From Pseudobdellovibrionaceae bacterium (lineage in GTDB: Bacteria; Bdellovibrionota; Bdellovibrionia; Bdellovibrionales; UBA1609), in the NCBI GenBank assembly GCA_023954155.1, contig JAMLIO010000003.1:216920-280919 (forward strand): DNA of 64,000 nucleotides. The letters run 5' to 3'. A model generated the notes under the pieces. It worked only from the letters and a program-made list of their open reading frames with translations, did no database searches and was not told where the DNA came from. How positions within the stretch are numbered: position 1 is the first letter of the stretch; every line of letters begins with the position of its first letter. The position numbers were made by a program, and so were the translations under genes. Positions 14,848 to 22,520 of this stretch are shown here, piece by piece.

Positions 14848-15450
14848 CTATTTTCTACAGAATTCTAGTAAAAGCTTACAGTCTCCATCATCTGCGGCCC
14901 TAAGGGCTACAATATACGCGCTACGAATCTCTTGATCTGACTTGTAAGAGCCCTCTTTACTTCCCCATGTGAAAGGCTTTTGATTATACTTATTCTGCAA
15001 AACTTCCGTCATAAGACGTGCATGTCGACCATTACCATTTGGAAAAGCATGAATAAAAACTAACTTGTGATGAAACCTGACACAAATTTCATCCATATTA
15101 TAAGTTTTATGCTCAATCCAATAGGTGGTATTTTGAAATAAATTTTGAAGCTGCATTGCAATTTGCGATGAATCTACTCCAATGTTTTTATTAGTTTGTC
15201 TTTGTTGTCCTGCCCACGTCCAAACCTCACCAAACATTCTTTTATGCAAACCCATACAGAAAGAAACATTTAAACAGTCTCGATCTCGTCGGCTCAAAAC
15301 CCATTTTGTGGCTGCAACAATATTTTTCTTCTCAAAAATATTTAACTCAGCTTGGGTATCAATAAAGTCTAACTTTAAACCATCTACTTCATCTGGATCT
15401 AAAGGAGTTGCCCCTTCTGGATCATCAATTTGAAAATTACTCAAAATCAC
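14848..15450 (-). CDS. Fic-domain protein, mobile mystery protein B type
   Basis: 200 aa. The Fic motif HAFPNGNGRHAR is encoded at 15051-15016. Size, and pairing with an upstream HTH gene across a 7-nt gap, match the TIGRFAM mobile mystery protein A/B pair. Confidence 0.8.
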   Translation of the reverse strand: MILSNFQIDDPEGATPLDPDEVDGLKLDFIDTQAELNIFEKKNIVAATKWVLSRRDRDCLNVSFCMGLHKRMFGEVWTWAGQQRQTNKNIGVDSSQIAMQLQNLFQNTTYWIEHKTYNMDEICVRFHHKLVFIHAFPNGNGRHARLMTEVLQNKYNQKPFTWGSKEGSYKSDQEIRSAYIVALRAADDGDCKLLLEFCRK

Positions 15451-15457
15451 TCTTTTT

Positions 15458-15940
15458 CTATTTATTGTTTACCAGTCCCCAAATTCTTGGGTCCATTTTT
15501 TGTTTCAACTCTTGCTTAAGCTTTTCAAGCTCTTTCTGTGAGTTTTTGGTACCTTGCAATTCTAATCGCATAGAGTGCTCAACATTATTTAGTATCTCAC
15601 GAGCTACTTCTTCCGCTTTACGGTCAATGATGTCTTCCAAATTTGCATAACCATCCTTGGGTACAAAAGCGTAAACCAACTTACATTCCATTTTGTCCGC
15701 AACCCGTTCCAGCATTTCTAAAGTCACATTCTTTTTAGGTTCTCGCTTTTCAAGCTGGATGATAGATGACATGCTTACCCCCAGTAACTGAGCAAGCTGT
15801 CTGGAACTCATTCCAAGCGCATTTCTAATGGCTCTCACCCAGCCTGATGGAGGAGCTTTTAATTGTTTAAGCTCCACAGCTTTAAGTCTTTGGTCTAAAA
15901 TGCTTCTATTTAGCTCTAAGTCTTTTTTATTCGTTTTCAT
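15458..15940 (-). CDS. XRE-type HTH protein, mobile mystery protein A type
   Basis: 160 aa. The HTH is GMSSRQLAQLLGVSMSSIIQLEKRE, with a charged coiled C-terminus. It sits directly upstream of the Fic gene. Confidence 0.7.
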   Translation of the reverse strand: MKTNKKDLELNRSILDQRLKAVELKQLKAPPSGWVRAIRNALGMSSRQLAQLLGVSMSSIIQLEKREPKKNVTLEMLERVADKMECKLVYAFVPKDGYANLEDIIDRKAEEVAREILNNVEHSMRLELQGTKNSQKELEKLKQELKQKMDPRIWGLVNNK

Positions 15941-16037: not shown

Positions 16038-16564
16038 ATTGGGGTTTATCCATATTTCTAGAGCTCTAATTAAGTAATAAGAGCTCAAGTTTATGTTAGT
16101 TAAATCCGCCAAATCGAATTAAAGTACAAGACAGACGCTCTCTAGAATCTAGCGTTGACAGGCTTGAAAAACCGCCACAAAACCTACGCTTCCAAAGCAT
16201 CATCGTGAATGCATTCAATAGCATTAAAAAAAATTTTAATAGCGAAAGCATTCTGTGCAAAGTCTGCCTAGTTGTGCCAATGGCCTCTACGCCTTGGTTC
16301 TATTTTTTTAGTTCTTTGTGAGCTAAATATATATTCCATTCCTTTTAATTTCCCTTTTTTTAAATCTTCTTTAACAAAATCATAATCATGCAGTATCGAT
16401 CTTAATTTTAAGACAGCTTTGCTTAATGTCTTTACCTCTGCCTAATATTAACAAAGTCTTTATATCTTCTACAAAAACATAATCATTTTAACTCTACATC
16501 TATCAGAAAATATATTGTATTTTATAATAAGAAATGTATTCACTCCGCAACAAAGAGGTGTTTG

Positions 16565-18280
16565 ATGGATTTTTCATTTGGATTTAAAAACTATAAATGC
16601 TTTGGAGAGCAAATTAATTGGATTGAGTGGAAACCTATCACTGTACTAATTGGAAAGAATAACTCTGGAAAATCTTCTATTATTGAAATAATTCAACAAC
16701 TGGTAGAAAACAAAAACTACACTCGTTTGATTGCAGAAAAGCACCACAAAAACTCAAATGGAAACGTAGCCGAACCAGAATTCTTTATTAGTCGAAAATT
16801 TGACAAACCAACATTAAGCCAAGCCTTTCCTCCAAGCGTCTCAGGCGGAGACATTGGCATGAATCATGGCAAATATGCTGATACATATGTCGGGAGTGAG
16901 TATAAATATAAGCTAATATCGAATGAGAAAGGTAATCTTTTAGAAATCCAAAAACAAGAGTCCCAAGCACAACCCTTTATGCCTGATCTAAGAACTTGGA
17001 ACAGTTATAAACTTGCAATGGAACGTAGTTTATTATCACCATTAAGACACAAAAAATTTCATTGGATAATACCTGAAAGACAAATTATATCTGAAGAAAA
17101 AACAGAGCCTCCTATCATTTACGGAACTGGCAATGGTTTAACAAATGCCATTGAAATCTTTTTGAATCACAGAAACTATGATGAAAAAACAGTCAGCAAA
17201 TACATCCTTTCAGGTCTTAATGCAATATTCAACCCAGACTATCATTTTACAAGAATTACTACAAAACACGAATCTAATAAATACGAGATCTTTCTTGAAG
17301 AAAATGGAAAGCTAATTTCTTTGAGCAATTTTGGCACAGGAATTAAAACTGTATTATTGGTTTTATCTATATTAAATTTAACCCCTATTTTAGAATGCTC
17401 TAATCCAAACGATTATGTGTACGTATTTGAGGAGCTCGAAAACAACCTGCACCCTCAACTATTAAGACGCGTTTTGAATTATATTTACACAAAAGCAAAC
17501 GAACTGTCTTTTTCTGTGATTCTTACAACTCACTCAAATGTAACTATTGATTTTTTTAGCACAAAAGAGGTTTCGCAAATACTTCATGTACAAAACAAAG
17601 AGGGGGCATATTGTGTTAATAAAGTTCAAACTTTTTTTGACAGCAAAAACGTTTTAATTGATTTGGACATCAAACCCTCTGATTTATTACAAGCTAACGG
17701 TATTATTTGGGTCGAAGGACCAAGTGACAGGATTTTACTTAATAAATGGATTTCCGAATGGGGGAAAGATTATAACTTTAATGAAGGAACGCACTATCAA
17801 ATTGTTTTCTACGGAGGAAGATTACTTAGCCATTTATCAGCTGAAGATTCAGAAGAAAATGATGATTTAATTAAAATGCTGAGAATTAATTCAAACGCAG
17901 CAATTTTGATTGATAGTGATAAAAAAATTGAATCTGACACACTCAACTCCACCAAGCAAAGAATCATTGATGAGTTTAACTCTTTTCAAGGCTTCACTTG
18001 GATAACAAAAGGTAAAGAAATCGAAAACTACTACCCTAAAGAGGTTGTGTTAAGAAAACTCTGCCTAAATGATATCCAAGACTACCATAACTTTGAACCC
18101 TTTTTTGCTAAGCTCAATACAGCTCAAGATAAACTGGGAGACAAGCTCAGTCGGCAAAAAACTAAGCTTGCAACCTCCCTTATTGAAAACTTTGATATAG
18201 ATACATGGCGCAACGTAATGGATTTAGACAAAAGAATGACCAATTTAATTTCAGAAATTAAAAAGTGGAATAATTTATAA
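16565..18280 (+). CDS. OLD-family (GajA-like) ABC-ATPase + Toprim nuclease-like protein
   Basis: Walker A GKNNSGKSS (16652-16678), Walker-B-like YVYVFEELENNLHP, and TTHS. The C-terminal Toprim signature is IIWVEGPSDRILL (from 17711) plus ILIDSDKK (DSD at 17912-17920) and GKEIENYY. ATG 16565 is preferred because AAGAGG lies 6 nt upstream. Confidence 0.7.
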   Translation: MDFSFGFKNYKCFGEQINWIEWKPITVLIGKNNSGKSSIIEIIQQLVENKNYTRLIAEKHHKNSNGNVAEPEFFISRKFDKPTLSQAFPPSVSGGDIGMNHGKYADTYVGSEYKYKLISNEKGNLLEIQKQESQAQPFMPDLRTWNSYKLAMERSLLSPLRHKKFHWIIPERQIISEEKTEPPIIYGTGNGLTNAIEIFLNHRNYDEKTVSKYILSGLNAIFNPDYHFTRITTKHESNKYEIFLEENGKLISLSNFGTGIKTVLLVLSILNLTPILECSNPNDYVYVFEELENNLHPQLLRRVLNYIYTKANELSFSVILTTHSNVTIDFFSTKEVSQILHVQNKEGAYCVNKVQTFFDSKNVLIDLDIKPSDLLQANGIIWVEGPSDRILLNKWISEWGKDYNFNEGTHYQIVFYGGRLLSHLSAEDSEENDDLIKMLRINSNAAILIDSDKKIESDTLNSTKQRIIDEFNSFQGFTWITKGKEIENYYPKEVVLRKLCLNDIQDYHNFEPFFAKLNTAQDKLGDKLSRQKTKLATSLIENFDIDTWRNVMDLDKRMTNLISEIKKWNNL

Positions 18281-18512: not shown

Positions 18513-18695
18513 ATGCCACGAGGAAAAAGGATAAGGGCAGAAGAAATCGTATCAAAACTTCGCCAAGCAGAAGTGATGTTAGCAAAAGGTACAGCGCTAG
18601 AGCTAGTCTGCAAACAGTTAGAAATATCACCACAAAGTTATTATAGATGGCGCAAAGAATACGGTGGCCTTGAAATCGATCAAGCTAAGAAATGA
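18513..18695 (+). pseudogene. Truncated IS3-family OrfA (HTH) fragment of a second, related IS
   Basis: The 60-aa fragment MPRGKRIRAEEIVSKLRQAEVMLAKGT...SPQSYYRWRKEYGG is paralogous to the intact OrfA at 18774. The reading frame ends exactly at the second left-end sequence (18693). Confidence 0.7.
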
Positions 18696-18773
18696 CCTCC
18701 TCCCCAAAAAGAAGGCCATGGGTATCTTTAGAAGCGTCGTGACAAGTGGTCCTTAAAGCCCTAAGGAGGATAA

Positions 18774-19040
18774 ATGAAAAAAACAAGATACACAGAAGAA
18801 CAGATCGTGCACGCCCTTCGCAGAGCCGAGTCTGGCGAACGAGCCAAGGAAGTTTGTCGTAGCCTAGGAATAACCGAGCAAACTTTTTATACATGGAAGA
18901 AGAAGTATGCAGGGTTAGGGATAAGTGAGCTACGCAAGCTAAAACAGCAAGAAGACGAGATTCGTCGTTTAAAGAACCTAGTAGCAGACCTCATGCTGGA
19001 TAAACAAATGCTCCAAGAGGTGGTTCAAAAAAAGCTCTAA
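18774..19040 (+). CDS. IS3-family transposase OrfA
   Basis: 88 aa with an HTH ([15 protein letters not shown]) and a leucine-zipper-like tail. The slippery heptamer A-AAA-AAG sits in frame at 19028-19034. Confidence 0.9.
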
Positions 19041-19072
19041 AACCTGCTAAGAGACGCGATCTTGGTCAGTGG

Positions 19073-19879
19073 TTGGTCAAGAATTTTCGCGTGAGCCATC
19101 GTAGAGTTTGCAGGTTATTGCGTCTGGCTCGGTCAACATATGACTATAAGAACCACCCTAGAGATGATCGTGCAGTTCGGGAAAAGATCATCAGCATAGC
19201 GCAATCAAGGCCACGTTATGGCTGTCCACGCATACATGTCTTACTTAGGCGTGAAGGCTGGAAGGTTAATCACAAAAGGGTTCATAGGATTTATAAGGAA
19301 GAGCAGTTATGGGTACGCACCAAGAAAGTTCGTCGCAGAAAATTTACAACTGAGCTAAGAGTTACACCTCCTACCCCGACCAATCTTAATCAAGTTTGGA
19401 CAATGGATTTTGTGCATGACCAGTTGATTGATGGCCGTAAGATACGGATGTTAACCATAGTTGATAAGTTGAGTCGAGAAAGCCTAGCAATTGATTCTGG
19501 GTATGGCCTTAAATCAGAACAGGTTATAGAAACACTAGAGCGTTTAAAAATTTTCAGAGGAATTCCAGAGGTTATATGTGTAGACAATGGGAGTGAATTT
19601 ACATCAAAAAAACTTGATCAGTGGGCTTATATAAATGAAGTAAAGTTACATTTTATTAGACCTGGAAAGCCTACAGAAAATGGGCACATAGAATCGTTTA
19701 ACGGTAGACTTAGGGATGAGTTTTTAAATGCAAATCTCTTTTCAAGCCTTGAGGACTTCCAAAGAAAGGCGGAAAGATGGCGTATAGAATATAACAATTG
19801 GAGACCTCATTCATCAATAGGCAACTTGACACCAAGAGAATTTGCTAGGAGAAGAATGAATAAACAGACCGCTTGTTAA
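19073..19879 (+). CDS. IS3-family transposase OrfB (DDE integrase core), expressed as OrfAB by -1 frameshift
   Basis: The -1 frame read from 19028-19034 runs [22 protein letters not shown]... straight into this ORF. The DDE residues lie in [17 protein letters not shown] and [12 protein letters not shown]. Confidence 0.9.
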
Positions 19880-19979: not shown

Positions 19980-20411
19980 GACGCCTGCCCCGTAAAAGAC
20001 GAAACCTACAAAGTGGCCGAAAGGTACCAACTCGTCGTTTACGTTGTAGCCAACCAATACCTTAACGTTCCTATGAGCACTCGCATTCGTATGGAATGCG
20101 TGGAAGGGTCATTTGATGCTGCTGATGATTGGATTGTGGAAAAGATTGAGCGTGGCGATGTTTTGATCACCTCAGATATTCTTTTAGCTCAGCGATGTTT
20201 AGAAAAAGAGGTCTTTGTTCTCAACCCCAAAGGACACGAATTCACCCAAGATAATATTGGTGAAGCCATAAGTGGTCGTGAGCTAGCTGAACACCAAAGA
20301 AACTTAGGTCAGTCAGGTACTGGCCCAAGCCCCATGACTAAAGCTGACCGTTCGCAGTTTTTGTCAAAGCTAGATCAAGTAATACAAAAGGCAAAGCGTA
20401 AAAATACTTGA
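19980..20411 (+). pseudogene. yaiI: YaiI/YqxD (UPF0178/DUF188) family gene, 5'-truncated by the IS
   Basis: The frame reads DACPVKDETYKVAERYQLVVYVVAN... from the first codon after the IS right end (19977). That is the conserved family N-terminus (..VDADACPV..) missing about 7 codons and its start. The track ORF begins at an internal GTG (20013). Confidence 0.7.
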
Positions 20412-20616
20412 TGGTTGATAAAATCAGCCTCAAATCTATAAAATAGGCAGCAAATATCCAGATCAAAGTCTAGTAAAAGTCTATATTTAAGACCTAATTC
20501 ATTGAACATATAACCTATAATACTATCTTTAAAATGAGCCCAACTTCTATTAAAATAGGCCATTTATAACCTTATAATGCTTTATATTGATTTAGGTACT
20601 TAATTTAATCACAACA

Positions 20617-20717
20617 TCTAGTAAATTTACCAAATAAGTTCTAGAAAAAATAAACTCTATCTTCTAGTATATTTTTATGTTAAGTTCTAGTAAATTTTCT
20701 CGATAAGTTCTAGAAAA
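20617..20717. promoter_or_regulatory. Two 32-bp direct repeats (27/32 identical) plus a partial copy, upstream of the large Fic gene
   Basis: Copy A (20617-20648) is TCTAGTAAATTTACCAAATAAGTTCTAGAAAA. Copy B (20686-20717) is TCTAGTAAATTTTCTCGATAAGTTCTAGAAAA. A partial CTTCTAGTATATTT lies at 20661-20674. Each copy carries two TTCTAG(T/A)AAA half-sites. Copy B ends 13 nt before the GTG start. Confidence 0.6.
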
Positions 20718-20730
20718 GGGAGCCACAAAA

Positions 20731-22278
20731 GTGCCAAAGCAAAAGCCTCATGAAATTTTAGCTGAAGCTCTGACGCATGCAAAACAAGTCTCTGGAGAAA
20801 AAGGGGTGCTCAAGCACTCCGATCTTGAAAGTAAGTATATACAAGTTCTAAAAAAAGGTGGATGGCTTACCCCCATTATTAAAGGCTGGTACTTACTTAA
20901 CAAACCTGAAGACACTGGCACTTCTACAGTTTGGTATGTGGGCTTTTGGTCCTTTCTTAAGGCTTATTTAGAGGATCGCCTAGGTAAAGACGGTTACTGC
21001 CTGTCTGCTGAGGCTTCTGTCTCTCTTCATACAGCCGAAGAGCACATCCATAAACAAATTACAGTGATCACAAAAAAGAATACTAATCAAACTATAGATC
21101 TACCTTTCGGAACATCACTTCTTCTTTATACCGATACAAAAAACTTTCCACAAAGCATTCAAGATCTTAGCGGATTAAGCGTTATGCCCCTGCCACTAGC
21201 ACTATGCAGGCTATCACCCGCGTACTTTCAGACAAAACCTTTAAACGTTGAGATCGCCTTACGAAGCTTAAGCTCAGTTTCTGAAGTGTCACGAATTTTT
21301 CTTGATAATGGCCTTGTCACAAGTGCATCACGGTTAGCTGGAGCATTTGAAGCTTTGGGAGATCAAAAAGCCGCAAAACAAATTATTGATGACATGGACG
21401 CCGCTGGTTATGCCGTCGAAAGCCAAAATCCTTTTGAAAGATACACTTCTTTGTTTACTAACTCTACCAGAATACGCTCACCTTATGTTGGAAGAATTCA
21501 AGCGCTTTGGAAAAAAATGCGTCTTGATATAATAGATATCTTACCTCCGCCGCCTGGGTTGGTGCCACGTGAAAACAAAAACTTTGTCCACATCATTGAA
21601 GAACGATACATACAAGATGCATATCACTCTTTATCCATTGAAGGGTATGAAGTTAGTGAAGAGCTGATTGAAAAGATTCAATCAGGAAATTGGAGCCCTG
21701 ACTCCAACGCTAGTGATTTGAATCATAAAAATGCTATGGCCGCCAAAGGTTACTACGAATCCTTCATTCAAGTTCTTGATAGCATTAAAAAAATCTTAAG
21801 AAAAGATAAGTCTGCCAGTGAAGTTTTTTATGAAGATTTGCAAGATTGGTATCGCGCCTTATTTTCCCCAAGTGTGCAAGCAGGTATTATTAAAGCAGCA
21901 GACCTGGCAGGTTACAGAAACGCTCCCGTATATATTAAAAATGCCCGACATGTGCCACCCAGATCTGAAGCTGTAACCGATGCCATGGAAGCCCTGTTTT
22001 CTCTTATTAAAGACGAAGAGCACGAAGGTGTTAAAGCTATTCTAGGTCATTTTATTTTTGTTTATATTCATCCTTACATGGATGGTAACGGACGTATTGC
22101 AAGATTTTTAATGAACCTTATGCTGACCTCAGGTGGCTACGACTGGACCATTATTCGCACGGAAAGCAGGAATAAGTACATGGCTGCCTTAGATGCTGCA
22201 TCTTCTGATGGTGACATTAAACCCTTTGCGAAATTGGTGGCACAAGAAATGGAGCACTGGAAGGATCAGGGCAGCTAA
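20731..22278 (+). CDS. Fic-domain protein with an AbiEi-antitoxin-like N-terminal domain
   Basis: 515 aa. The Fic motif HPYMDGNGRIAR is at 22069-22104. An N-terminal-side inhibitory-helix-type motif SLSIEG ([ST]xxxE[GN]) is at 21628-21645. The first ~200 aa (VLKHSDLES..LKKGGWLTPIIKGWYLL...YCLSAEASVSLHT) follow the AbiEi_4-type wHTH antitoxin pattern. GTG start with AAGGGAG upstream. Confidence 0.75.
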   Translation: MPKQKPHEILAEALTHAKQVSGEKGVLKHSDLESKYIQVLKKGGWLTPIIKGWYLLNKPEDTGTSTVWYVGFWSFLKAYLEDRLGKDGYCLSAEASVSLHTAEEHIHKQITVITKKNTNQTIDLPFGTSLLLYTDTKNFPQSIQDLSGLSVMPLPLALCRLSPAYFQTKPLNVEIALRSLSSVSEVSRIFLDNGLVTSASRLAGAFEALGDQKAAKQIIDDMDAAGYAVESQNPFERYTSLFTNSTRIRSPYVGRIQALWKKMRLDIIDILPPPPGLVPRENKNFVHIIEERYIQDAYHSLSIEGYEVSEELIEKIQSGNWSPDSNASDLNHKNAMAAKGYYESFIQVLDSIKKILRKDKSASEVFYEDLQDWYRALFSPSVQAGIIKAADLAGYRNAPVYIKNARHVPPRSEAVTDAMEALFSLIKDEEHEGVKAILGHFIFVYIHPYMDGNGRIARFLMNLMLTSGGYDWTIIRTESRNKYMAALDAASSDGDIKPFAKLVAQEMEHWKDQGS

Positions 22279-22376: not shown

Positions 22377-22481
22377 CAAAATTATACCTGATCAGGTATA
22401 ATTTTTTGTTTTAGGAATTTTTCGTACCCTATCGGGTATAATAACTAGACTTTTTAATTAAATTATACCCAATAGGGTATG
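22377..22481. repeat. Three copies of a hyphenated dyad TTATACC(C)-N4-6-(G)GGTATAA in a convergent intergenic region
   Basis: 22377-22404 is AAAATTATACC-TGATCA-GGTATAATTTT, followed by a T-run. 22424-22442 is GTACCC-TATC-GGGTATAAT. 22462-22481 is ATTATACCC-AATA-GGGTATGAT. Confidence 0.7.
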
Positions 22482-22520
22482 ATTTTGGTCTTTAACATTA
22501 GGAAGTGCGCGGCTGTCAAT

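Follow-up and report, generated by a model that had tools for sequence, protein, structure and literature searches.

A predicted AbiEi-type fold fused to a FICD-like Fic domain, preceded by an array of 23-bp direct repeats

Introduction

In type IV AbiE systems, the antitoxin AbiEi pairs with a separate nucleotidyltransferase (NTase) toxin, AbiEii. This toxin-antitoxin couple, assigned to type IV, has lately been proposed as type VII. Among Fic AMP-transferases, the inhibitory glutamate is carried on a helix, which belongs to a separate small antitoxin in the class I pairs FicT/FicA and VbhT/VbhA. In FICD (HYPE) and other class II Fic proteins, an N-terminal inhibitory helix, [ST]xxxE[GN], accompanies the active-site motif HPxxDGNGRxxR, and in FICD the inhibitory glutamate supports de-AMPylation. 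AbiEi-type proteins, namely AbiEi and Rv2827c, bind as monomers to 23-bp sites located at -1 to -131 in their own promoters (PMC7319586). Fic and helix-turn-helix (HTH) domains also occur in one chain, as in CccR of Y. pseudotuberculosis and the antiphage protein SoFic of Shewanella, both with a single-domain winged helix at the C-terminus. CccR represses its own promoter via the HTH and is toxic by AMPylating FtsZ (PMC9755527); SoFic-type proteins are described as abortive-infection toxins.

The gene described here lies in a window of 64,000 nucleotides (the whole stretch of DNA analysed, from a Pseudobdellovibrionaceae bacterium). It encodes, in one chain, a module predicted to have an AbiEi-type fold and a class II Fic domain with intact motifs. 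This fusion, noticed in an earlier sequence-only reading, is confirmed. That reading was aware of no characterised example, and no description of an AbiEi-like/Fic fusion was found in the literature searched; Fic enzymes and AbiE systems are each well studied, but the link that the fusion makes between them is absent from that literature. Members of the family are annotated only as "Fic family protein", and about 230 of the 515 residues carry no annotation.

Compared with AbiE and M. tuberculosis Rv2827c/Rv2826c, the locus presents a mixture of shared and divergent features. The predicted two-domain fold and secondary-structure order of residues 1-230 are those of AbiEi, and both AbiE and the window gene have repeated 23-bp sites within ~130 bp 5' of their own start codon. 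However, AbiE has a DUF1814/AbiEii NTase partner, whereas the window gene has none and carries a Fic effector fused in cis. There are also differences from the described Fic proteins. FICD contains a transmembrane helix and TPR repeats where the window protein has a DNA-binding-type module. The class I pairs have no such AbiEi-like addition, and their glutamate is supplied in trans, whereas that of the window protein is in the same chain. In contrast to CccR and SoFic, the winged helix of the window protein is N-terminal and part of a two-domain, AbiEi-like module. New here are the five direct 23-bp repeats upstream of the gene and the 23/24-bp arrays found throughout the family; the available portions of the CccR and SoFic accounts mention no multi-unit periodic array.

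Gene and protein organization

The gene and the parts of its product are as follows.

20716..20722, + strand: ribosome-binding site AAGGGAG, 8 nt 5' of the GTG (read directly from the sequence)
20731..22278, + strand: ORF of 515 aa, AbiEi-like module plus Fic domain (ORF call, homologues, AlphaFold model)
20731..20916, + strand: residues 1-62, winged helix-turn-helix (AlphaFold model, Foldseek, conservation)
20851-20898, + strand: N-terminal motif KKGGWLTPIIKGWYLL, residues 41-56 (translation)
20917..21420, + strand: residues 63-230, resembling the AbiEi C-terminal domain (model, Foldseek, topology of PMC7319586, hhalign)
20995-21033, + strand: N-terminal motif YCLSAEASVSLHT, residues 89-101 (translation)
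21421..21480, + strand: residues 231-250, linker (no secondary structure predicted)
21481..22275, + strand: residues 251-515, class II Fic region resembling FICD (Pfam, FICD sequence and structure matches)
21628..21645, + strand: inhibitory-helix motif SLSIEG, [ST]xxxE[GN], residues 300-305, with E304 (translation, FICD alignment)
22069..22104, + strand: Fic active-site motif HPYMDGNGRIAR, residues 447-458, with catalytic H447 (translation, conservation)

The ORF begins with a GTG codon. Every motif quoted in the sequence-only reading was recovered by translation at its place, and the numbering of E304 and H447 was correct. The gene is real: its homologues number thousands, and the best 120 of them are ~500-550 aa long, with 49-100% identity and at least 94% query coverage. 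AlphaFold predicted the full-length protein with a pLDDT of 89.6 and a pTM of 0.88, and the mean pLDDT of residues 241-250, within the linker, is 81. In the model, the winged helix comprises a helix (residues 6-21), a strand (26-28), a short helix, a further helix (34-43) and a wing hairpin (46-56), at the end of which G52-W53 is invariant. Residues 63-230 form one long helix followed by a row of strands and six helices, an NTase-like fold that lacks the DxD catalytic motif.

The AbiEi-like module

Structural and sequence comparisons of the N-terminal module differ in outcome. A Foldseek search of the PDB with the model of residues 1-230 (pLDDT 89), a check suggested together with the original claim of an N-terminal AbiEi pattern, placed AbiEi among the top matches. 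The first three were 6y8q_A (E 5.6e-5) and 6y8q_D, both chains of AbiEi, and 1zel_A (TM 0.52), which is Rv2827c. AbiEi and Rv2827c were the only PDB matches better than E 0.01, both domains were aligned together, and AbiEi was also recovered with the full-length model as the query. The order of elements (winged helix-turn-helix, single helix, strand row, six helices) is that of the published AbiEi topology (PMC7319586). The model thus supports an AbiEi-type two-domain fold for residues 1-230, and to this extent the claimed AbiEi pattern holds, but it is recognized by no curated sequence model.

Judged by sequence, the module is a member of no curated AbiEi family. The Pfam AbiEi models (PF13338, PF09407, PF11459 and PF17194; COG5340 family) gave no match to the window protein at E<=10, and scans of 24 and then 82 diverse relatives yielded no more than a single sub-threshold hit each to AbiEi_3_N (E 0.052) and to AbiEi_4 (E 0.084). 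NCBIfam and PADLOC returned no AbiEi match to the module, PDB sequence profiles gave nothing significant for it, and BLASTP against real AbiEi reached E 0.63. An hhalign comparison with S. agalactiae-type AbiEi, using sequences taken from metagenome contigs that were found with an exact primer-derived probe, aligned 123 colinear columns (P 0.003) at a probability of only 10.5%. In this alignment, KGWY falls opposite RGIY, and LH.GN..VP opposite LQ.FTDEIP. In this weak match, the toxin-contacting loop of the S. agalactiae antitoxin, D85-E86-I87, falls on a different family consensus, GN..VP; only the Pro is common (77 of 85 copies), and the window protein has His in its place.

The failure of the HMMER, PDB-profile and BLASTP searches, the low hhalign probability and the Foldseek TM-scores of 0.37-0.52 would all fit convergence, that is, a generic winged helix joined to a degenerate NTase-like domain with neither ancestry nor mechanism in common with AbiEi. 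We nevertheless judge this improbable, given that the structural matches better than E 0.01 are exclusive to AbiEi and Rv2827c, span both domains and persist with the full-length query, that the element order is identical, that the hhalign pairing is colinear, motifs included, and that the DNA site size, 23 bp, is the same. Moreover, AbiEi and Rv2827c are themselves accepted homologues despite an identity of only 17.7%, and their domain orientations lie 65 degrees apart (PMC7319586).

The Fic domain

By its sequence, the C-terminal half belongs to the class II Fic domains and resembles FICD; it retains every catalytic residue together with the inhibitory glutamate in the same chain, as anticipated from the SLSIEG motif upstream of the active site. 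This is no chance match: the Pfam Fic model PF02661 matches residues 368-465 with 57.4 bits (cutoff 24), and FICD, the best match by sequence, covers residues 267-508 at E 1e-21 as a single sequence and at 6e-29 as a profile. FICD likewise comes first among the structural matches of the full-length model (E 1e-10). SLSIEG aligns on the inhibitory helix of FICD (TVAIEGN), with S300-E304 invariant in all 85 relatives and G305 present in 84 of them. Similarly, all 85 relatives have H447, N453, R455 and R458, and 83 of them have the motif D. The sequence agrees with the active-site motif HxFx(D/E)GN(G/K)RxxR except at position 3, where FICD and class II Fic proteins have Phe and 84 of the 85 copies of this family have Tyr. 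The Fic domain already has an inhibitory glutamate of its own, so the AbiEi-like part need not act as an antitoxin.

The relation to SoFic is confined to the Fic part, which the PADLOC SoFic model matches at E 1.8e-24 over only model positions 57-261 of 361. No match extended over the whole of SoFic with its C-terminal winged helix; the NCBIfam SoFic model, which has a cutoff of 550 bits, scored 22.

The upstream repeat array

Two features lie 5' of the ribosome-binding site or overlap it. The repeats had not been noticed in the sequence-only reading.

20550..20578, + strand: sigma-70-like TTAAAA-17-TATAAT, 5' of the array (consensus match, weak)
20611..20725, + strand: five head-to-tail 23-bp units, operator-like (sequence inspection, Tandem Repeats Finder)

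Each unit has an 8-nt core, WTCTAGWA, and the five cores begin at 20616, 20639, 20662, 20685 and 20708, so that the direct repeats are spaced by exactly 23 bp, the period also reported by Tandem Repeats Finder. The array ends just 5' of the start codon. Comparable arrays of 3-8 units with a period of 23 or 24 bp are found across phyla and also accompany plasmid copies of the gene. Periodic chains of at least three units occur in 70 of 83 Fic upstream regions (84%) vs 1 of 458 control upstream regions (0.2%), and 168 of 254 spacings in the relatives are 23 or 24 bp. The core sequence varies with lineage, and within each unit only a core of ~10-15 bp is conserved, the spacers being variable. The units of the family are contiguous and direct, whereas the repeats of AbiE promoters are inverted pairs.

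By analogy with AbiEi-type proteins, whose 23-bp binding sites lie in the promoters of their own genes, the array is likely to serve self-repression. It indirectly favours the autoregulation proposed in the sequence-only reading. Base-residue covariation with the core AA-x-C-z-AA placed 10 of the 20 top columns in residues 63-235, against 7.4 expected; no enrichment was detected in the winged helix, in a set of 36 loci confounded by phylogeny. The promoter is uncertain, as the scanned region contains nine sigma-70-like matches vs six expected from shuffled sequences, which makes such matches unreliable.

If the best of these matches is the promoter, the array would fall in the transcribed leader. 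This placement, the overlap of the last unit with the ribosome-binding site and the missing winged-helix covariation would be in keeping with repeats that are not the protein's own operator but a 5'-leader RNA element, such as a type III-like antitoxin, or sites for another factor, such as iterons or a centromere. We regard this as very improbable. The RNA reading of the repeats was rejected, as an Rfam search of the array gave no match and its predicted RNA fold is not stabler than that of shuffled sequence (z -0.88). In ToxI-type arrays the entire repeat is conserved, in contrast to the core-only conservation seen here; in addition, no terminator separates the array from the ORF, and the downstream gene encodes Fic and not an RNase as in ToxIN-like systems. 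A type III-like array, iterons and a centromere were likewise rejected, for want of whole-unit conservation, a terminator and a partner ATPase; indeed, no conserved neighbour could supply another binding protein or a partition ATPase. The unit length, finally, equals the site of an AbiEi monomer.

Distribution, neighbourhood and possible roles

The gene is present in at least 591 species of many phyla; its distribution is patchy, and the encoded proteins are 42-59% identical to that of the window. It is carried by 76 plasmids, 41 of 80 matching records are predicted to be conjugative, and several loci have IS elements, integrases or genes of a T4SS close by. It is absent from the phage collection. 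All-against-all clustering of ORFs from 85 loci (863 ORFs after removal of overlaps) revealed no conserved partner gene, no neighbour family being found in more than six of the 85. Pfam analysis of 150 immediate neighbours showed that most are ordinary metabolic or housekeeping genes, and AbiEii was absent among the 25 commonest families (141 matched) in these flanking ORFs; in the window, no DUF1814 (AbiEii) NTase gene adjoins the gene. The absence of a recurrent neighbour and of an AbiEii-type NTase supports the proposal of the sequence-only reading that the module is self-contained. A split, two-gene ancestor was rejected as an explanation for two short matches from an exhaustive search that resembled free-standing N-terminal modules: one (L086) is a continuous match to residues 3-507 with one in-frame stop, and the other (L085) ends early, 26 nt before the end of its contig.

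In the window, the gene shares an island with an IS3 element, an OLD-like nuclease and a second HTH and Fic pair. This second pair is the following feature.

14848-15940, - strand: mobile mystery proteins A/B (TIGR02612/TIGR02613), 5 kb away

Like the window gene, this is a mobile cassette of HTH and Fic, but it consists of two genes, one for an XRE-type HTH and the other for a short Fic protein of 200 aa, and has no AbiEi-like fold.

We consider it moderately probable that the gene and its array constitute one self-contained, horizontally mobile, autoregulated Fic module, the operator and the control of Fic included. Each 23-bp unit would be occupied by one protomer through its AbiEi-like module, in the way that monomers of AbiEi and Rv2827c occupy their sites, and the module bound to the array would repress its own transcription. 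The Fic domain would be an AMP-transferase kept off by E304 until a signal releases it, its resting state may be that of a de-AMPylase, as in FICD, and the alignment of several protomers along the array may contribute to the state of Fic. Most speculatively, released Fic could AMPylate an essential host protein, resulting in plasmid addiction or abortive infection. Several observations count against this explanation: the repeats are direct, unlike the inverted ones of AbiE promoters; the AbiEi likeness comes with no curated match, low TM-scores and an hhalign probability near 10%; winged-helix covariation is lacking and the promoter is not placed; and the neighbourhoods are mostly ordinary and metabolic, with the phage collection devoid of the gene.

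The same anatomy could serve a different role, that of an ordinary HTH-Fic signalling enzyme, either a non-toxic, reversible AMPylase/de-AMPylase or a nucleotide-sensing, autoregulating transcription factor. The housekeeping neighbours and the lack of phage matches agree with such an enzyme, as does the conservation of E304 in 85/85 copies, given that the same glutamate supports de-AMPylation in FICD. Fic-HTH fusions, moreover, are common, and control of Fic expression is a long-standing proposal for their role (PMC2686095); CccR autoregulates through its HTH (PMC9755527). However, the patchy occurrence across phyla, the many conjugative plasmids and flanking IS elements, the composition of the window island and the fact that the N-terminal module is, by structure, nearest to antitoxins all speak against it, and we hold this role to be somewhat unlikely.

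A putative toxin or defence role is plausible. In its most specific form, the protein would be a cis-fused counterpart of AbiE, in which the NTase toxin has given way to a Fic AMP-transferase joined covalently to the regulator. Several protomers would assemble head-to-tail on the array, and the enzyme would be kept off by this DNA-templated assembly or by contact of the AbiEi-like domain with the Fic active site; plasmid loss, dilution of the protein or a phage cue would cause release, AMPylation of an essential target and a stop in growth. This form is doubtful, but if true it would represent an addiction or defence module made of one gene and a novel mode of Fic regulation. If toxic on release, the autoregulated module would be a compact, single-gene addition to the addiction and antiphage systems. 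The fusion suggests that the AbiEi fold is not tied to its usual NTase but can couple to another effector. From the array it could be learnt how a 23-bp site is read by a single AbiEi-type protomer, and whether assembly on DNA governs a Fic enzyme; by analogy, the array could also inform the switch between AMPylation and de-AMPylation in FICD.

A further minor feature lies downstream of the ORF.

22460..22485, + strand: hairpin resembling a terminator, located between the Fic and GFA genes, which are convergent (weak)

The fusion gene and its Fic domain

Translation locates every motif quoted in the sequence-only reading at its expected place in the 515-aa ORF:

20731–22278, plus strand: fusion ORF, 515 aa, GTG start
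8 nt upstream of the fusion-gene GTG: ribosome-binding site AAGGGAG
residues 41–56: N-terminal motif KKGGWLTPIIKGWYLL
residues 89–101: N-terminal motif YCLSAEASVSLHT
residues 300–305: SLSIEG motif
residues 447–458: Fic motif HPYMDGNGRIAR

The gene is real, because thousands of relatives turned up among the 5.8 billion proteins searched, and the best 120 listed are near full-length (~500–550 aa, identity 49–100%, query coverage at least 94%). Where these 120 bear a name, it is "Fic family protein", "fido (protein-threonine AMPylation protein)" or "hypothetical protein".

The only Pfam match in the protein is Fic (PF02661; residues 368–465, 57.4 bits against a cutoff of 24). Human FICD/HYPE entries are the closest solved relatives by sequence (E 1e-21 over residues 267–508 in a single-sequence search; E 6e-29 with the family profile), and FICD is the closest structural match (E 1e-10) to the full-length AlphaFold model (pLDDT 89.6, pTM 0.88). 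SLSIEG aligns with the FICD inhibitory-helix sequence TVAIEGN, which assigns the protein, at the level of sequence, to class II of the Fic family, with a predicted inhibitory glutamate in the same chain, N-terminal to the core. As an enzyme it would resemble FICD and other class II Fic proteins. The Pfam score and this alignment bear out the proposal of a C-terminal Fic half preceded by an inhibitory motif. Residues S300–E304, H447, N453, R455 and R458 are invariant in 85 genomic copies from many phyla, arguing that the enzyme is intact and probably selected to remain both active and self-inhibited. Position 3 of the Fic motif is Tyr, not the usual Phe, in 84 of the 85 copies.

An AbiEi-like N-terminal module

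Residues 1–290 of the window protein are unrecognised by the curated sequence models of Pfam, NCBIfam and PADLOC; for the N-terminal half, Pfam gave no match at E<=10, and NCBIfam and PADLOC gave none. Pfam found nothing AbiEi-related in 24 relatives and, in a set of 82, only AbiEi_3_N (E 0.052) and AbiEi_4 (E 0.084), in one relative each. Sequence-profile searches of the PDB with the module found no match. An AbiEi alignment, built from the S. agalactiae abiEi-abiEii locus retrieved with a primer-derived exact probe, matched the profile of 82 N-terminal modules weakly (probability 10.5%, P 0.003) but colinearly over 123 columns, with the pairs KGWY/RGIY and LH.GN..VP/LQ.FTDEIP (N-terminal module/AbiEi) in the same order.

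Residues 1–248 were modelled separately (AlphaFold, pLDDT 89.1) and compared with the PDB by Foldseek. Three matches head the result, each with probability 1.00 and both domains aligned, and no other reached an E-value below 0.01:

S. agalactiae AbiEi, 6y8q chain A: E 5.6e-5
S. agalactiae AbiEi, 6y8q chain D: E 3.3e-3
M. tuberculosis Rv2827c, 1zel: E 3.5e-3, TM 0.52

AbiEi was also recovered with the full-length model as query (rank 50, E 2.7e-3). The order of elements in the N-terminal model (winged helix, one long helix, strand row, six helices) is that described for AbiEi (PMC7319586). The module probably has an AbiEi-superfamily fold, too diverged for HMMs. Judged by its models the protein is structurally AbiEi-like, and by sequence it lies outside every curated AbiEi family. 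The structural check that the sequence-only reading had suggested for residues 1–220, run here on 1–248, gave AbiEi as the best match, so that its AbiEi assignment stands for the predicted fold (6y8q and 1zel) but not for curated AbiEi sequence models, none of which matches. The protein combines this fold with a class II Fic domain that keeps its catalytic and inhibitory residues.

Next in structural similarity to residues 63–230 (20917–21420), behind AbiEi and Rv2827c, come the nucleotidyltransferases JHP933 (described as putative) and ANT(2'')-Ia. CLSAE.S and QITVIT occupy the GS and DxD positions of an NTase, suggesting an NTase fold that has lost catalysis. Many polar residues of the domain are nevertheless conserved, e.g., S96, Q109, S129 and R201.

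A repeat array upstream of the gene

Directly upstream of the ORF lies a feature absent from the sequence-only reading, five copies of WTCTAGWA (starts at 20616, 20639, 20662, 20685 and 20708) with a period of exactly 23 bp, the fifth ending 16 nt before the GTG. All other copies of the motif in the 64-kb window are solitary. Upstream regions were fetched for 80 genomic loci of relatives, and almost everywhere contain 3–8 head-to-tail units; where at least three copies are present, 168 of 254 adjacent spacings measure 23 or 24 bp to the base. Periodic chains of three or more units precede 70 of 83 family members versus 1 of 458 other genes at the same loci, tying the array to the fusion gene, and plasmid copies carry it too. 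Only a core of ~10–15 bp is conserved within the unit and differs by lineage (e.g., TTCTAGTA, AATAACCTAA, AATAAGCGAA, AACACAGT, CAAAGTA, TAGAGTA). When the variable core bases were compared with protein columns for covariation, in 36 loci and with phylogeny as a confounder, the winged helix was not enriched.

AbiEi and Rv2827c repress their own operons, binding as monomers to 23-bp repeats from -1 to about -131 of their own start codons (PMC3985639, PMC7319586). By this analogy the array is most readily understood as an operator for the AbiEi-like module, which would bind one protomer per unit, and the fusion protein would, like AbiEi, be a putative self-operator-binding regulator. The arrangement differs, as AbiE repeats form inverted pairs whereas those of the fusion gene are contiguous and direct. 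Nothing in Rfam matches the array region, its RNA folding stability is ordinary (z -0.88), and no terminator lies between it and the ORF.

Across the relatives' loci (L005–L084), the period follows lineage: the window's clade and some copies of Verrucomicrobiota or Burkholderiales type have 23 bp, whereas most of the Gamma- and Alphaproteobacteria type have 24 bp; one locus (L075) has eight nearly identical units. In the window, a lone core-like site (CAAAGTCTAGTAAA, 20464–20477) lies 148 bp upstream of the first unit, out of register.

Distribution, mobility and novelty

There is no conserved neighbour gene, the commonest neighbour family occurring in 6 of 85 loci, in keeping with the earlier description of the module as self-contained. 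Phage integrase (5) and HTH_3 (3) lead the Pfam families of 150 immediate neighbours, and AbiEii/DUF1814 is absent from the 25 most frequent of 141 matched families. Because it has no AbiEii, the fusion locus is not classed as an AbiE system. In an exhaustive profile search, 995 clusters (50% identity) carried the N-terminal module, and most long matches listed are of Fic-fusion size (~500 aa). The full-length fusion occurs in at least 591 species, including Bdellovibrionota, Myxococcota, Verrucomicrobiota, Alpha-, Beta- and Gammaproteobacteria, Bacteroidota, Gemmatimonadota, Nitrospirota and Vampirovibrio. It is found on 76 plasmids (41 of 80 matching records predicted conjugative), several copies having IS elements alongside, and on no phage in the collection searched; some chromosomal copies adjoin integrases or T4SS coupling proteins. 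It is a mobile gene with no fixed partner.

Apparent stand-alone N-terminal modules proved to be one pseudogene and one truncated fragment. At one locus (L086, 3865–5427), the interdomain linker contains one in-frame TAG, so that gene callers report a 239-aa N-terminal and a 253-aa Fic protein; this split is a pseudogene or sequencing error, and illustrates how fragments of this kind can be taken for two partner genes.

Fusions of Fic with HTH domains are already known (Kinch 2009, PMC2686095; CccR, PMC9755527; SoFic). In CccR and SoFic the winged helix is C-terminal and single-domain, whereas the AbiEi-like module is N-terminal and two-domain. Full-text searches on AbiEi with a Fic domain or AMPylation brought up no description of an AbiEi-Fic fusion. 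The architecture is widespread yet unannotated, with a distinctive putative operator array.

Proposed mechanism

A four-part scheme is proposed, in order of decreasing support. Best supported, the N-terminal module would occupy the array, one protomer per 23-bp unit, and repress its own gene. The Fic domain would be an AMP-transferase that E304 keeps inactive and that, as in FICD, may work as a de-AMPylase while at rest. Multi-protomer assembly on the array, or contact with the AbiEi-like C-terminal-type domain, may help to set the enzyme state. Least supported, release would lead to AMPylation of a host target, with addiction or defence as the outcome. The main rival assigns the same anatomy to a non-toxic regulatory enzyme. 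In our estimate it is unlikely that the gene is by itself an AbiE-like toxin or defence module, fused in cis and governed by DNA-templated assembly. Of the sequence-only reading, the observation holds, as does the interpretation for the predicted AbiEi fold, the Fic domain and the solitary gene; the toxin or defence role is plausible but conjectural.

The surrounding island

The fusion gene is at the margin of an island that includes a low-GC segment (15–19 kb) and contains a mobile mystery protein A/B HTH+Fic pair, an OLD/GajA-like ATPase-TOPRIM protein, IS3 and YaiI. GC drops to 0.32–0.35 across 15–19 kb, which marks the island as acquired.

14848–15940, minus strand: mobile mystery protein pair, another Fic gene, its HTH partner encoded separately
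16562–18280, plus strand: OLD/GajA-like ABC-ATPase, 572 aa (PADLOC GajA E 5e-26; AAA_15/AAA_21; faint TOPRIM match)
18513–19879, plus strand: IS3-family element
18513–18695, plus strand: extra orfA-like fragment just upstream of IS3 orfA (translation judged by eye)
18774–19040, plus strand: IS3 orfA (HTH_Tnp_1)
19073–19879, plus strand: IS3 orfB (rve)
20013–20411, plus strand: YaiI/YqxD (DUF188) gene (NCBIfam model from position 19, 132.5 against a cutoff of 139)

No GajB-like helicase is evident; IS3 sequences directly follow the OLD/GajA-like gene, so a partner gene may have been lost. The 5' end of the YaiI/YqxD gene may have been truncated by the adjacent IS3 insertion. The mobile mystery pair, comprising protein B (Fic, 200 aa; TIGR02613, 229 bits against a cutoff of 124) and protein A (XRE-type, 160 aa; TIGR02612, 140 bits against 123), lies 5 kb from the fusion gene and is a natural two-gene counterpart for comparison.
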